Assembly: GCA_039589315.1 (NCBI GenBank)
Contig: JBDHHQ010000053.1
Location: forward strand, 25,931-89,930
DNA length: 64,000 nt
Source: Gemmatimonadota bacterium
GTDB lineage: Bacteria > Gemmatimonadota > Gemmatimonadetes > Longimicrobiales > Gaopeijiaceae
Direction: 5' to 3'
Made by a program: the position numbers and the translations under genes. Positions within the stretch are counted from its first letter, which is position 1. Each line of letters opens with the position of its first letter. Below the pieces are notes generated by a model, which worked only from the letters and a program-made list of their open reading frames with translations, searched no databases and was not told the origin of the DNA. Below, in pieces: positions 18,541 through 25,104 of this stretch.

Positions 18541-19004
18541 GGTCGGTGCTCCTCCACTTCGACGTGCAGGCGAGTCGGACCCATGGCGTGATCTTCGAGT
18601 CGGCTGATCGGGTCCGCTTTCAGGTGGTCTCCGGGTCTCAGCGTCTGCAGACAGGGAGGATTCAGTATGGCCTCGCCAGCGCTCGCGCGCGAGGTGGTGG
18701 GCAGCCAGTCCGGGGCGACGGGGGTTCTGTTCCAACGCTCACGCTCCCCGCACTATCCGTATGCGGCGACATCGGGCCGACCAGTCCCGTCGAAGCGCCG
18801 GACGCTCCGGTCGCGTGGATGCCGAGGCCGGAGGCGCCGCATCGCTGACCCGCGATGATCGCCGTCACCCTCGACCGCGACCGACCCTACCCGCTTGGCT
18901 CTTCCTCGACATCGGAAACGTGACCGGTTGAAACGGGAGCTTACGCATGCATATTGGACACCCTCGCACTCGCGTCCCTGCCCACACCCCCGAAGGAGCG
19001 TTTG

Positions 19005-20420
19005 ATGACCGCACTGAAAGTGATGGAAGGACAGTACCTCGAGCTCGACGACGACGCCGTGGCCGGCTTCACCGCCAGCCTGAGAGGCGACCTCGTCACG
19101 CCCGAGTCCGATGACTACGACGAAGTACGCGCGATCTGGAACGCGATGATCGACCGCCGTCCAGGTGCCATCGTCCGTTGTGCGGGACCGAGCGATGTCA
19201 TCGCCGCCGTACGCTTCGCACGACAGCACGACCTGCTCGTTTCGATCCGCGGTGCCGGCCACAACATCGCCGGCAACTCCGTTGCCGATGGCGCGTTGAT
19301 GATCGACCTGTCGGGCATGACGTCGGTTCACGTGGACCCGGGCCGGGGCATCGTGCGAGCCGAGCCCGGCTGCACGTTGGGCGATCTCGACCACGAGACC
19401 CAGGTCCACGGCTTGGTCGTGCCCACCGGGATCAACTCCACCACCGGGATCGCGGGTCTGACCCTGGGCGGCGGCTTCGGGTGGCTCAGCCGAAAGCACG
19501 GCATGACCATCGACAACCTGATTTCCGCCGACGTCGTCACCGCCGAAGGCGAGCTGGTCCGGGCAAGCGCCAGCGAGAACGCGGACCTCTTCTGGGGCAT
19601 CCGCGGCGGCGGCGGCAACTTCGGCATCGTTACGTCCTTCGAGTTCCAGGCTCATCCCGTGGGGCCGGAAATCCTGTCGGGATTGGTCGTGCATCCCTTC
19701 GCGGACGCGATGGACGTCATGAAGCAAGTGTATGCCCTGACGGACGAGGCGCCCGACGAGCTGACCGTCTGGGTGGTCCTGCGCAAAGCGCCCCCTCTTC
19801 CCTTCCTTCCGGACGAGGTGCATGGCACCGCGGTCCTGGTCCTGGCCGCCATGTACGCCGGCGACATGGCCGACGGTGAGGCCGCGCTCGCGCCGTTCCG
19901 GGCCATCGGCAACCCCATCGCAGACGTGATCAGCCCACACCCCTTCACGGGATGGCAGGCCGCCTTCGATCCGCTGCTCACGCCCGGCGTCCGGAACTAT
20001 TGGAAGTCCCACAACTTCGAGGCGATGACCGACGATATCCTCCAGATCGTGGTCGATTTCACGGGCAAGCTGCCCACCCCCCACTGCGAGATCTTCCTCG
20101 CTCAGTTGGGTGGAGCCACGCGGCGTGTCGCCCACGATGCCACGGCCTACCCTGCCCGGGACGCGGCCTATCTGATGAACGTTCACGGCCGCTGGGAAGA
20201 CCCTGCGGACGACGCGGCCGTGGTCGGGTGGTCCAGGGAGCTCTTCGACAGCCTCACCCCCCATGCCACGGGCAACGTGTACGTCAACTTCATGCCCGAT
20301 GACGAAGCGGACCGCATCAGGGGCGCGTACGGGAGCAACTACGACCGCCTGGTGGAGCTCAAGAGGAAGTGGGACCCGGCCAACATGTTCCGGCTCAACC
20401 AGAACATCCGGCCCGACTGA
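19005..20420 (+). CDS. FAD-binding oxidoreductase, berberine-bridge / 6-hydroxy-D-nicotine oxidase-like
   Basis: RGAGHNIAG (covalent-FAD His), GLTLGGGFGWL, RGGGGNFG, YVNF, KWDPANMFRLNQNI. Confidence 0.9.
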   Translation: MTALKVMEGQYLELDDDAVAGFTASLRGDLVTPESDDYDEVRAIWNAMIDRRPGAIVRCAGPSDVIAAVRFARQHDLLVSIRGAGHNIAGNSVADGALMIDLSGMTSVHVDPGRGIVRAEPGCTLGDLDHETQVHGLVVPTGINSTTGIAGLTLGGGFGWLSRKHGMTIDNLISADVVTAEGELVRASASENADLFWGIRGGGGNFGIVTSFEFQAHPVGPEILSGLVVHPFADAMDVMKQVYALTDEAPDELTVWVVLRKAPPLPFLPDEVHGTAVLVLAAMYAGDMADGEAALAPFRAIGNPIADVISPHPFTGWQAAFDPLLTPGVRNYWKSHNFEAMTDDILQIVVDFTGKLPTPHCEIFLAQLGGATRRVAHDATAYPARDAAYLMNVHGRWEDPADDAAVVGWSRELFDSLTPHATGNVYVNFMPDDEADRIRGAYGSNYDRLVELKRKWDPANMFRLNQNIRPD

Positions 20421-20429
20421 GGTACCCGG

Positions 20430-20459
20430 AGGGGGGGTGGGCTTATCGCCACCCCCCCT
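20430..20459 (+). terminator. GC-rich hairpin after the BBE oxidase
   Basis: AGGGGGGGTGG-N8-CCACCCCCCCT 11-bp inverted repeat; weak U tail. Confidence 0.45.
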
Positions 20460-20534: not shown

Positions 20535-21332
20535 ATGGATCCCACGGTCACGCACGTCGCGGACACCCAGGAGCCCCTGGAGTCCGTCATCAAGGGCGAG
20601 GTCCTGCGCATGTACCAGGAGGTCGCCGACAACCCCGAGAACGAATTCCACTTCTTCCACGGCCGCGAAGCCGCCGAGATGTTCGGGTACCGCACGGAGT
20701 GGCTGGAGCGGGCCCCGGAAGGTGCCGTGGCTTCGTTCGCGGGCGTGGGGAACCCCCACGAGCGCTCGAATCTCCAACCGGGGGAGACCGTCCTGGACCT
20801 GGGGAGCGGCGCGGGCCTCGACGGGATCATCGCCAGTTGGCAGGTGGGTCCCACCGGTCAGGTCATCGGCGTCGACCTGAATCCGTCCATGTGCCTCAAG
20901 GCCCAGGCCCACGCCGAGGCTACGGGCACCAACATCCAGTGTCACGAAGGCCGCATGGAGGACATTCCCCTCCCGGACGAGAGCGTGGACGTGGTGCTCT
21001 CCAACGGCGTGATCAACCTCTCTTTCCGAAAGAGGCGGGTGATCCGTGAGCTCTTCCGGGTGCTCCGCGCCGGGGGGCGCATCTCCATCACCGACATCGT
21101 CAGCGCCAAACAGCTTTCCCAGTCCATCGTCAACGACCCGCTGCTCTGGGCTTCCTGAATCGGAGGCGCTCTCCCGGAGGGAGAGATGTTCGAGCTCCTC
21201 GAGGATGCGGGGTTCAAGAGGGTCAAGTCGGCCGTGGTGCCCGGCTTCCGCTTCCGCCAGGACTCGACCCGCAACGCGGCCGAGGCGTACGGCGTCAAGG
21301 CGGTCATGATGACGGCGCAGAAGCCGGGGTGA
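20535..21332 (+). CDS. ArsM-like SAM-dependent methyltransferase with probable selenocysteine (UGA 21156-21158)
   Basis: VLDLGSGAG, SNGVINL, RVLRAGGRISITD; frame continues through TGA as LWAS-U-IGGALPEGEMFELLEDAGF...MTAQKPG; the UGA lies at the ArsM W-x-x-C-x-x-GAL cysteine. Confidence 0.85.
21160..21193 (+). promoter_or_regulatory. Putative bacterial SECIS element
   Basis: Perfect stem CTCTCCC-GGA-GGGAGAG at 21169-21185, G-led apical loop 18 nt after the UGA; a lower stem with G-U pairs is possible. Confidence 0.7.
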
Positions 21333-21529
21333 TGCCTCCGTCCTGAGGGGCTCACGCGGGAGCCGGTCGTCGGACGACGTTGCAGGGTCGGGCGGGCACG
21401 CCGCACCTTGGTGCCGACCCTTCACGGATCGGCCGCCCGGCGCTCACCCATGAGACCACCAGCCTGGAGGCCGGCCCCGCGCCTGGAGTCTCGTATGCAA
21501 GGCGGTTCGCTGGCGGCCCCGAGGACCCC

Positions 21530-24004
21530 ATGCCGGCCCTGAAGACCCGGTCCGGGCACCCTGCCGCCGGGGCGCTCGCCCTGGGTCTTCTCCTGCTCGC
21601 CAGCTCACTGGCGGGACAGGATTCGGCGACCGCGGCCGGCGACACGGCTCGAGTCGGGGCCTCCGACGGCACCGCCCGGATCCTCCCCCCGCCGGAGCGG
21701 AACGGCCCACTCCCCACCATCGGACCGCCGCAGGATTCGACCGCGCTCATGGCGCCCACCGAGGAGCCCTCTCCCGCACAGGCGTCCCGGTTCCAGGGAG
21801 TCGGGGCAGACTGGACTGGGCGAATCGATGCCCATCGTGCCGGCATCGACGACGGCTCCGTGAGCTCCACGGTGGGAGGACCCCTTCTCGACTCGCTCGC
21901 CGCCGTCATCGACGCGGTCGAGACCGGGCTCGCTACGGCGCTCAGGGCGCGCGACGCCAACGTCTCGGGACCGGTGGACAGCGAGCTCCTTACGCTCCAC
22001 CGGGCGAGGGAGTCGCTTCTGGTGGTGCTGGACGACACTACGCGGGCCCGGCTGTTCGCATTCGGAGCGGATGGGGCCCGGGCCGTGGGACAGGAGCTCA
22101 GGTTCTTTTGGCTTCACAGCCGCCACGAAACCGTCGCCATGGGGTCAACGACTCGGGGCGTCGTCGCCCAGTTCCTGGCCGCGCCTCTCGGTTGGATCCC
22201 GGAGTTCCTCAAGATCGCGCTGGCGCTCCTGCTCTTCCTGTGGTGGCGAGGGACGGGGGCAGAGGCCCTGGTGCGGTGGCGAAGACGGCTGTTGGAGATC
22301 CGGCCGATCCGCCGCCAGAACCTCCGCCTCGCCAAGAGCCTCTGGTACTTCGACCGGATCCGGGTCCCGCTTGAATGGCTGGTGCTGCTCACGGCCATCG
22401 TCACGGTCACGCCGGCACGAGACTTCGGCCCCGCCCTGTTCGTGTGGGCCGTCGCCAAGTGGATCCTCATCGGTTGGACCGCCGTCCTGCTGGTCGATGC
22501 CATGGCGGCGAGGAGCGCGGCCGGCCGTCGCGGAGAGAGCGGCCTGCGTCGCCGATCCCTATGGATCCTCTGCTGGTGGATCGTGGCGTACGGGCTCGGC
22601 CGGCAGCTGGTGCACGACTTCTTCGGCCCGGGCGCTCTGTTCCATTGGGTAACGGCCATCCTTCTGGTGCTGCTGGGCCTGGTCGTGATTGTCCTGGTGT
22701 CGTGGTGGCGGGAGGAGGTGCCCGAGCGCCTGGACACGCTGGCCCAACGGCCTCGATTCCTCGACGCGCTTCTGACCCATCGGAGCGGTCTGCGAAGTTA
22801 CCTGACGAGCTTCCTGGGCGGATGCTACCTGCTCTTCGACGGAACCCGCGGAACGATCGTGCGCGTGCTCGCCCGGTCCGACCTGGGCCGCCGCACGCTT
22901 GCCCACCTCACACGGTCCGAGCTGGCCAAGCAGGCGCTCAAGGAGGAGGGAGCCATCGAAGGAGAGGCCCTCCCCGACCCGGTCCGGCAGGCCCTGCTGG
23001 ACGGCGACCGGGCCACGCTGATCGACAAGGCCACGCGGAAGACGGTCGCGGAGCTGGTGCGCCTCCTGGAGTCCGGTGCCGGGACGACCGCCGCCCTGGT
23101 GGGAGAGCGGGGCTCGGGTAAGAGCTCCACGGTGCGCCGCGTGATGGAGAAGCTCGACCGGAAGGCGATGCTCGTGCAGTGTCCCTTCGGGAGCTACGAC
23201 GAGCTTGCCAGGATCATCGCGGACAGGCTCCAGGTGCCCTGGGACTCGGAGACGGGGCGCCTGGCCGAGGCCCTGCGCTCCTCGGACACGGATATGGTGA
23301 TCGTGGATGACGTGCATCGGCTCGCCCGTCCGGTCATCGGAGGAGTGGTCGAGATCGATCGTCTGCGGAGCCTGATCCGCGACACGGGCGACGACGTCTC
23401 CTGGATGCTCACGTTGGACTCGGCCGCCTGGGAATACGTGCGCCGCTTCAGGGAGACGGAGCCGGTACACAATCACGTCCTCAAGCTCGAGGAGTGGGGC
23501 GAGGAAGAGATCGGCCGGCTGGTGGAAGCGCGCACCAAGGCCGCAGGGGTCGAGCCGGACTTCGAGAAGCTCGTCCTGCCACGCCAGCTCGACGACAGCT
23601 CCTACGACAGCCTGGCCAGCCGCAACAAGGCTGGCTTCTACCGGATCCTCTGGGACGACTCGGGAGGCAATCCCGAAGCTGCCCTCCGGATCTGGGCAGA
23701 TTCCTTGCTGGTCGATTCGTCTGGAGCCGAGGTCGTGCGCTTGGCGCACCCACCCAAAGCCGCCGACCTGGAGGGCCAGTCGTCGACCGCCTTTTTCGTG
23801 CTGCGGACGCTGCTCCGACTGGAGACCGCGACCGCGGAGGACGTGGTGGCGTGCCTCCCCATCTCGTTCGAGGAGATCGAGGACACGCTCCTGTTCCTTC
23901 GGACAAAGGGCATCGTGGAGGAGTACGACGGGCGTCTCTCGGTCGGTTGGACGTGGGACCGGGCCGTGCGGCGGGCCCTGTCCCGCCGAAACATGACCGC
24001 CTGA
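21530..24004 (+). CDS. Signal peptide + multi-TM + P-loop (AAA-like) ATPase of unknown function
   Basis: Hydrophobic N-terminus, about 5-6 TM segments, Walker A GERGSGKS, Walker B VIVDD, SGGNP, winged-helix-like C-terminus. Confidence 0.7.
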   Translation: MPALKTRSGHPAAGALALGLLLLASSLAGQDSATAAGDTARVGASDGTARILPPPERNGPLPTIGPPQDSTALMAPTEEPSPAQASRFQGVGADWTGRIDAHRAGIDDGSVSSTVGGPLLDSLAAVIDAVETGLATALRARDANVSGPVDSELLTLHRARESLLVVLDDTTRARLFAFGADGARAVGQELRFFWLHSRHETVAMGSTTRGVVAQFLAAPLGWIPEFLKIALALLLFLWWRGTGAEALVRWRRRLLEIRPIRRQNLRLAKSLWYFDRIRVPLEWLVLLTAIVTVTPARDFGPALFVWAVAKWILIGWTAVLLVDAMAARSAAGRRGESGLRRRSLWILCWWIVAYGLGRQLVHDFFGPGALFHWVTAILLVLLGLVVIVLVSWWREEVPERLDTLAQRPRFLDALLTHRSGLRSYLTSFLGGCYLLFDGTRGTIVRVLARSDLGRRTLAHLTRSELAKQALKEEGAIEGEALPDPVRQALLDGDRATLIDKATRKTVAELVRLLESGAGTTAALVGERGSGKSSTVRRVMEKLDRKAMLVQCPFGSYDELARIIADRLQVPWDSETGRLAEALRSSDTDMVIVDDVHRLARPVIGGVVEIDRLRSLIRDTGDDVSWMLTLDSAAWEYVRRFRETEPVHNHVLKLEEWGEEEIGRLVEARTKAAGVEPDFEKLVLPRQLDDSSYDSLASRNKAGFYRILWDDSGGNPEAALRIWADSLLVDSSGAEVVRLAHPPKAADLEGQSSTAFFVLRTLLRLETATAEDVVACLPISFEEIEDTLLFLRTKGIVEEYDGRLSVGWTWDRAVRRALSRRNMTA

Positions 24005-24126
24005 GCGACACACGAGGAAGCGATCCGACTCTGCCAGACCGATTGAAACGACCGCCCTCCCCTCTCGTCGCGTGGCGAGCGGCGATGGAGCGACGACGGA
24101 TCCTTGGACCCCAGCTGGAGATCACC

Positions 24127-25104
24127 ATGAGCACATCGACCCCGAGGCGCTCTCGCAGTGACCCCTTCGCGCTCCTTCCGGTGCTGCATGGCACGCTGGC
24201 GGCTGCCTTCGCCGTCCTCGCGTGGAGCCACCCAGCCTCGGCTCAGACGGAAGCGTCGGAATCCGTCGACGAGCCCATCCTCCAACTCGCCCGGCTGGTC
24301 CGCTGGGGCGGCGTCGCGACCTCGGTCGTCGTGATCGCGGTGGTGTACTTCGGCTTGGGCTTCATCGACCGCATCGTGAACGGTCTGGGGGAAACGTTCA
24401 CGGACAAGCGGCTGACACTCCAGAAGAGCGCCACGTTCTTCCGGTTCGGCACCTACATCGCCACGTTCCTCGTGGTCTTCTTCCTCAGCTTCGAGGTCGA
24501 CCAGCGGCTCCTGACCCTCATGGGCGGCACGGCGGCCGTGGCTCTCGGCTTCGCCCTGAAAGACCTGGTCGCATCGGTGGTGGCCGGGGTGATGATCATG
24601 ATCGACCGCCCCTTCCAGGTGGGCGACCGTGTCCGGTTCGGCGGGGAGTACGGTGACATCACGAGCATCGGGCTCCGGTCCGTGCGTCTCCAGACGCTGG
24701 ACGACAACACTGTGACCATCCCCAACAACAAGTTCCTGAGCGACCTCACGTCGTCGGGGAACTTCGGGGCATTGGATATGATGATCACCATGGACTTCCA
24801 CGTCGGGATCGAGGAAGACGTCGCCCTGGCCAAGGAGCTCGTCCGCCAGGCGGCCGCGACGAGTCGGTACGTGTACCTGCCGAAGCCCGTCGCGATCACC
24901 GTGAAGCAGTTGATCGTCGAAAGCTACGTAGCGGTCCGGCTCAGGCTCAGGGCCTATGTACTGGATACCCAATACGAGAAGGCCTTCGAGACCGACGTTC
25001 ACCTGAGGATTCTGAAGACCTTCAGGGAGCACGGCATTCGGCCCCCGGCCGTGCTCCACCGCGACCTGGCCACTGCCGCGCCGCAGATCCGGGCCGCGTC
25101 CTGA
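24127..25104 (+). CDS. MscS-family mechanosensitive channel
   Basis: ALGFALKDLVAS, DRPFQVGDRV, IGLRSVRLQTLDDNTVTIPN. Confidence 0.9.
   Translation: MSTSTPRRSRSDPFALLPVLHGTLAAAFAVLAWSHPASAQTEASESVDEPILQLARLVRWGGVATSVVVIAVVYFGLGFIDRIVNGLGETFTDKRLTLQKSATFFRFGTYIATFLVVFFLSFEVDQRLLTLMGGTAAVALGFALKDLVASVVAGVMIMIDRPFQVGDRVRFGGEYGDITSIGLRSVRLQTLDDNTVTIPNNKFLSDLTSSGNFGALDMMITMDFHVGIEEDVALAKELVRQAAATSRYVYLPKPVAITVKQLIVESYVAVRLRLRAYVLDTQYEKAFETDVHLRILKTFREHGIRPPAVLHRDLATAAPQIRAAS

Follow-up and report, generated by a model that had tools for sequence, protein, structure and literature searches.

A selenocysteine (Sec, U) form of 'arsenite methyltransferase', marked by the motif UxxG, is listed in passages of PMC2398784, PMC9312934 and PMC13188914. 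Its catalogue representative is WP_011987699.1 (NF008823/PRK11873). The 2007 work of Fomenko that is cited for this selenoprotein reportedly describes experiments on the mammalian cysteine enzyme. For the cysteine enzymes ArsM and AS3MT, passages of PMC6138428 state that four cysteines are all required for As(III) methylation and that the Cys174-Cys224 pair binds the metalloid; sections of PMC3877260 add that the human C156S variant (the Cys174 equivalent) shows no activity with either iAs(III) or MMA(III), and that one thiol binds DMA(III). The UxxG motif also occurs in three double-selenoprotein families, NF041537 (ArsM/AhpD), NF047649 (MTase/UXPK-star) and NF041536 (ArsM/DUF2284), which carry a second domain and a second Sec.

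The gene considered here lies in a 64,000-nucleotide window of a Gemmatimonadota bacterium (contig JBDHHQ010000053.1), in a plus-strand frame at 20535-21332 that opens with the ATG at 20535 and runs for 207 codons to a TGA at 21156-21158, right after LWAS. Past this TGA the frame remains open for 57 sense codons (21159-21329; IGGALPEG...AQKPG) as far as a TGA stop at 21330-21332, so that reading through the first TGA, the single in-frame UGA of the gene, yields 265 residues. The translation, NCBIfam matches, a structural model and Foldseek all describe an ArsM-like class I SAM-dependent methyltransferase with Sec at position 208, the position of Cys224 in CmArsM, as assigned from alignment and from relatives. 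The apparent stop almost certainly encodes selenocysteine, and the gene is well supported by sequence comparison as a real selenoprotein gene of a kind already known, truncated by gene callers. The first-pass annotation had proposed the open frame beyond LWAS*, with coordinates and translation that agree exactly with those above, as well as Sec read-through, a SECIS element and a 265-residue product, a proposal now strongly supported by the sel genes, the relatives and the hairpin.

The same annotation had implied a new kind of selenoprotein, which does not hold, because Sec 'arsenite methyltransferases', the present type included, have already been catalogued. The catalogued enzyme has the same fold, Sec position and UxxG motif as this protein. 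In file 1 of PMC12013277 (deep-Sep), two of the five entries examined (of six) are of what is here called the Val/Gly type, with Val and Gly at the positions of ArsM Cys72 and Cys174 and the context W-x-x-U-[IV]-GGA; the catalogue representative, like three more of the entries, retains the equivalents of Cys72 and Cys174, unlike this protein, and in both Val/Gly entries listed there the residue two positions N-terminal of the Val is Cys, against Ala in this protein. The Gemmatimonadota subgroup further differs from the catalogue type in scoring below the NF008823 cut-off and in being deposited truncated. The methyltransferase domains of the double-selenoprotein families match residues 17-262, N-terminal helix included, although the scores stay far below the respective cut-offs (NF041537, 205 against 510 bits; NF047649, 184 against 460; NF041536, about 179 against 575) and both the second domain and the second Sec are missing here. 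The stand-alone form may already have been treated in Haft and Tolstoy 2025, the paper on these double-selenoprotein families, or in the supplements of PMC13188914, and the database described in parts of PMC13326102, which includes Gemmatimonadota genomes, may hold these genes; a search of the open-access literature returned no biochemical study or characterised member of the Val/Gly type.

Comparison with ArsM and AS3MT (CmArsM 4FR0/6CX6, CrArsM 5EVJ and human 8XT7) reveals likeness in the SAM motif, in the chalcogen at the Cys224 site and in the fold, which is the closest found, set against the loss of three of the four catalytic cysteines, the lack of a C-terminal Cys-rich domain, an identity of about 30% and the absence of an ars context. 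An AlphaFold model with Cys in place of Sec reached a pLDDT of 94.8 and a pTM of 0.91, and the 12 best Foldseek ranks were all ArsM or AS3MT structures (TM 0.61-0.71). Beyond residue 208 the model places a helix at 215-225, a strand at 228-234, a helix at 243-252 and a strand at 255-262; the post-UGA codons are thus predicted to supply the IGGAL loop and to complete the Rossmann fold with a helix and its last two core strands. Motif I (VLDLGSGAG, residues 86-94, 20790-20816), in which G92 and G94 are invariant in the alignment (A1), as is D96 beyond it, serves in SAM binding in enzymes of this class. In the CmArsM alignment (E 2.5e-25), U208 falls on Cys224 of the ECLGGAL motif, Gly158 (21006-21008) on the arsenic-binding Cys174 and Val71 (20745-20747) on Cys72, the Gly and the Val being present in 80/80 relatives; residues 1-119 contain no Cys and hence no equivalent of Cys44 or Cys72. 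Of the four positions that are cysteines in ArsM, just one is therefore occupied by Cys or Sec, and the best NCBIfam match, NF008823, reaches 208 bits against a cut-off of 263. The conventional arsenite methyltransferase implied by the first-pass annotation is contradicted by these two results, and the protein should not be filed as ArsM, because three defining features fail.

Two further cysteines, Cys120 and Cys136 (20892-20942), are subgroup-specific: they are found in 80/80 close relatives at core positions that are Leu and Phe in CmArsM and likewise in three deeper Sec members (L121, L123 and L124). The idea that they serve as substitute ligands was considered and ruled out, since the deeper Sec members do without them, and judging from the alignment they are probably not catalytic. 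In a quick tree, support is 99 for the Gemmatimonadota subgroup and 96 for the canonical group, and the deeper forks, monophyly of the Val/Gly type among them, are unsupported.

The host genome (95% complete, 5% contaminated, 67% GC) encodes the machinery that Sec insertion needs. All four sel genes whose presence the earlier annotation had made a test of its proposal were recovered above curated cut-offs: selC, a tRNA-Sec(UCA) scoring 75.1 bits against 47; SelA, 531 against 268; SelB, 335 against 242; and SelD, 370 against 125, the last from a gene that itself has one in-frame TGA (C5:69192-70112, L016). The genetic code has not been reassigned, as TGA is the commonest true stop, ending 4406 of the 6872 long open frames in the genome. 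Within a phylum sample of 151 genomes, the methyltransferase gene with one TGA occurs in 17, each of which has selA, and five more genomes carry a distant TGA form, again all with selA; this co-occurrence lends only mild support, because selA is found in 122/151 genomes and kin are not independent. One weaker match without the stop (46% identity) has Cys at the site, and selA was not found in that unpublished genome (G093). The spread of the gene appears patchy, given that the same query found no copy in the 16 genomes sampled from the family to which the host belongs.

The hairpin CTCTCCC-GGA-GGGAGAG at 21169-21185 (7-bp stem, GGA loop) follows the UGA after a 10-nt spacer, its first base being the 11th nucleotide past the UGA, exactly where the first-pass annotation had placed it; the loop begins 17 nt past the UGA and the hairpin alone folds at -10.2 kcal/mol. 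Published bacterial SECIS limits, as given in Fig. 2A of PMC13188914, are a loop of 3-9 nt, a stem of 4-16 bp, a G in loop positions 1-2, a spacing of 16-37 nt and an MFE of -7.5 or lower. A custom script, used in place of bSECISearch, found the hairpin to satisfy all of these constraints (3-nt loop, 7-bp stem, GGA, 17 nt, -10.2). Taken by itself the hairpin is weak evidence, for an equally perfect G-loop hairpin follows 74/4406 TGA, 38/2109 TAG and 8/357 TAA long-frame ends in the genome (about 2%), and folding energy is uninformative, the 60-nt region folding no better than its shuffles (z -0.24 to -1.27).

What raises the hairpin above chance is its conservation and covariation among relatives, namely the 80 best-matching genome loci out of 148, which show 72-94% identity and come mostly from Gemmatimonadota, with a small number of bins assigned to Acidobacteriota, Eisenbacteria and other groups. 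The loop is GGA in 81/81 genes, and the closing pair is C-G in 33, U-A in 41, U.G in 7 and C.A in none, where independent sites would lead to an expectation of about 17 C.A pairs. The U/C change exchanges Leu and Pro in the protein with pairing still kept; in this unusually clean bacterial SECIS an amino-acid swap is thus driven by base pairing. On a quick tree from which these columns were excluded, the closing pair switched state at least 11 times, although branches with strong support require only a few of these switches. Codon counts, made on 79 genes (the source gene included, L082 and L100 excluded), tell the same story at the level of the stem: Ala is GCT in 78/79, Leu is CTC in 79/79 and Gly is GGA in 78/79, compared with upstream shares of 8% of Ala, 48% of Leu and 14% of Gly codons, and the two Gly codons 5' of the stem use all four codons. 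Outside the hairpin the tail conserves its amino acids and leaves synonymous sites free. The distantly related subgroup L115-L119 (39-46% identity) also carries a hairpin at this offset; there a stem C-G is replaced on both sides by G-C, and in one of the five the closing position is an unpaired A.G.

TGA stands at codon 208 in 80/80 relatives, with a conserved downstream frame that stays open for 56-67 codons except in L082, which has an in-frame deletion 3' of the hairpin, and L100, which meets its contig end. Among other irregular copies, L050 has an upstream stop, P0098 a deletion spanning the Sec site, and G004 two copies of the gene in one genome; in G027 (C3:499531-500154; L101:2626-5487) residues 57-264, TGA included, continue in frame from a kinase/TPR-like protein, which could reflect a deletion, a chimera or a misassembly. 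The alternation of Cys and UGA, proposed earlier as a check, is borne out at the protein level. CmArsM has Cys where this gene has UGA, and when the top 150 representatives at 50% identity were aligned, giving 160 stretches, the same held for 70 canonical stretches (Cys at all three testable positions) and for 35 with Gly at 158; 19 more with Gly at 158 end just short of 208. A non-Cys residue at the site had been named as a ground for refutation; Cys/Sec prevails, and exceptions do exist, in six Gly158-type stretches with Gly (three), Arg, Trp or Glu at 208 and in P0003 (79% identical), recorded with Trp, the remainder of the 160 being partial or odd. The Trp of P0003 probably stems from the code that the gene caller chose. 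Database entries are as a rule truncated, as had been anticipated: 118/120 top homologs, and 120/120 top matches of a wider profile, are deposited as ending at W-x-x, so that the present reading corrects a systematic annotation error in which a family is deposited as stopping at its Sec codon.

Taken as a whole, the best explanation, with a probability of roughly 0.88, is that the gene encodes a Sec208 selenoprotein, a methyltransferase of ArsM fold with a single selenol from which the partner cysteines of ArsM are missing. SelB carrying GTP and Sec-tRNA(Sec) would bind the GGA-loop hairpin 11-27 nt past the UGA, Sec would be inserted at codon 208 and translation would run on to the stop at 21330; for SelB-dependent insertion at this codon the comparative evidence leaves very little doubt. 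The product would be a soluble class I SAM methyltransferase of ArsM fold whose Sec208 selenolate, as the only active-site chalcogen, would bind a one-ligand soft electrophile beside the methyl group of SAM and allow the substrate to be methylated. That the enzyme uses a single selenolate to methylate a soft substrate with one ligand is offered with low confidence.

Two readings do without Sec, and each is highly improbable. Were the UGA a real stop, the gene would yield a 207-residue protein, a pseudogene, or a separate 48-residue tail peptide starting at Met218 behind the GGAGG of the hairpin; the databases do record the gene in this way, with the top homologs ending at W-x-x, and a Shine-Dalgarno-like purine run lies just 5' of that ATG, which is kept in 74/79 genes. 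Yet the codons between the UGA and the ATG of Met218 appear to be translated, because Ile-Gly-Gly-Ala-Leu is kept there in 79/79 genes with the first three third positions free; the ATG itself is CTC in two relatives and missing in L115-L119; neither TAA nor TAG occurs at codon 208 in any of the 80 genes, against a mixture at the true stops (TGA 44, TAG 27, TAA 8); and the 207-residue product would, according to the model, be two core strands short. The UGA might instead be read as Trp, Cys or Gly, through a reassigned code or leaky read-through, or might be a sequencing error, and the Trp recorded in P0003 would fit the former. This, too, is very hard to reconcile with the data: the only tRNA in the genome with a UCA anticodon is tRNA-Sec, TGA is a frequent true terminator as noted above, the same TGA recurs in 80 independent assemblies, and a SECIS under selection is accounted for by SelB only. 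Public DNA sequencing runs contain at most 0.11 of the query words, and the contigs placed at 85% are relatives' DNA and give no firm evidence on the codon; no RNA sequencing runs carrying the gene are listed.

More bears on the substrate, which from the active-site residues is probably not plain arsenite. It is unlikely, though not negligibly so, that the Sec-containing protein is a bona fide arsenite methyltransferase in which the selenolate acts with low-molecular-weight thiols, or with Cys120/Cys136, in place of the lost cysteines. Such an activity would agree with the exclusive ArsM/AS3MT identity of the closest solved structures, with the location of Sec in the arsenic site, with the JGI labels of many members and with a relative, P0124, that is joined in one protein to both a canonical ArsM and a CMD/AhpD domain. 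Opposed to it are the Gly at the Cys174 equivalent in 80/80 relatives, a position whose loss abolishes both AS3MT steps in the experiments described in sections of PMC3877260, the lack of Cys120/Cys136 in deeper Sec members, the lack of any ars-operon Pfam family (E<=1e-8) among 202 neighbour-cluster representatives, and the host's own ArsM genes, one above the NF008823 cut-off and one a radical-SAM/ArsM fusion. Of specific substrates, first place goes tentatively to a late organoarsenical, for instance DMA(III), or to some other soft metal(loid); a small thiol, persulfide or selenide is a weaker candidate, arsenite with outside thiols providing the missing ligands is doubtful, and some other substrate, or a non-catalytic protein, is less likely again. 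More broadly, it may be, though this is put forward tentatively, that the Val/Gly-type ArsM-like proteins, which amount to thousands of truncated or misnamed entries, form a separate enzyme class whose single Sec or Cys performs a chemistry unlike that of ArsM, the methylation of species with one ligand (a persulfide, a selenide, DMA(III) or organomercury), in which a covalent Se-methyl intermediate may take part. A metal(loid) or sulfur role fits, because the group is fused to MerC, TusA and DsbA-like domains: among the 28 scanned, Gly158-type fusions involve MerC (2), TusA (3), a DsbA-like thioredoxin (2), DUF2652 (4) and CMD plus canonical ArsM (1).

The importance of the finding is modest, and the functional point, the substrate, is more useful than the annotation fix and simple to test. 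The catalogue name 'arsenite methyltransferase' mixes canonical Cys-Cys-Sec enzymes with the single-selenol type, in which the Cys pair that binds arsenic is missing; if the latter acts on a different substrate, the consequences extend to selenoproteome tables as well as to environmental arsM counts. Should the separate class prove true, an uncharacterised selenoenzyme activity would exist in abundant soil and sediment bacteria, and arsM surveys would be counting the wrong genes.

The host's own ArsM repertoire comprises a paralog on C15 that scores 301 bits against NF008823 (cut-off 263) and has Ser at the Cys72 position, and an 831-residue radical-SAM/ArsM fusion on C31 (L107:1829-5043). The latter, with a canonical ArsM part, lies directly 3' of a family 2 glycosyltransferase gene and resembles arsenosugar-type gene sets, yet scores under the cut-offs of those families.

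Around the methyltransferase gene itself, the plus strand carries an FAD-binding/BBE oxidoreductase upstream (18954-20420), which also stands beside the gene in a few relatives, and downstream a membrane AAA-domain protein (21380-24004) and an MscS-like channel (23494-25104); no link of these genes to the methyltransferase is evident. An 11-bp GC-rich inverted repeat at 20430-20459 (plus strand), between the oxidoreductase and methyltransferase genes, is a possible terminator judged by its sequence, though without a U tract, and a promoter and terminator scan around the methyltransferase gene called nothing, this repeat included. Gene neighbourhood was tried as a functional clue and set aside: the 267 neighbour genes (crude calls, 1.5 kb, 80 loci) fall into 202 clusters, none of them conserved, the largest being Ser/Thr kinases ubiquitous in the phylum (13) and another small methyltransferase (6). 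Acr3/ArsB, ArsC, ArsA, ArsD and ArsR were absent among the 202 cluster representatives, cut to 330 aa and searched against Pfam at E<=1e-8. Sulfur-handling neighbours are hints, but rare: at L104 and L105 (G040 and G089) the gene has a divergent LysR-like gene on one side and an MFS plus rhodanese/metallo-beta-lactamase pair on the other, and at L081 and L100 it follows DsrE and a sulfide:quinone-reductase-like flavoprotein. At L102, in the unpublished genome G093, an ECF sigma factor, a Cys-form Val/Gly methyltransferase, an OsmC-like gene and a second such methyltransferase stand in a row.

A codon-model scan of the host genome, which looked for stop codons set in coding-like sequence and accompanied by a hairpin, returned 14 TGA candidates among 60, of which, besides the methyltransferase gene, five are convincing by UGA position: two formate dehydrogenase alpha subunits (C6:5052, L112; C3:170974, L113) and an AhpD-like CxxU gene (C74:7083, L111), all probable selenoproteins with in-frame UGA, and two genes that we take to be OsmC-like (C96:4570, L109; C12:23251, L110). 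The latter two have an in-frame TGA in a U-x-x-G/T context and hairpins that share a U-GGA-G apex; their proteins had no NCBIfam match at 1e-5. OsmC-like homologs, every match with one TGA, occur in 32/151 phylum genomes, and a partnership with the methyltransferase was rejected, as they are present in just 5 of the 17 genomes that carry its gene. Elsewhere in the genome, 18 tRNA genes of the same strand form an array of 2.7 kb (C68:16206-18887).
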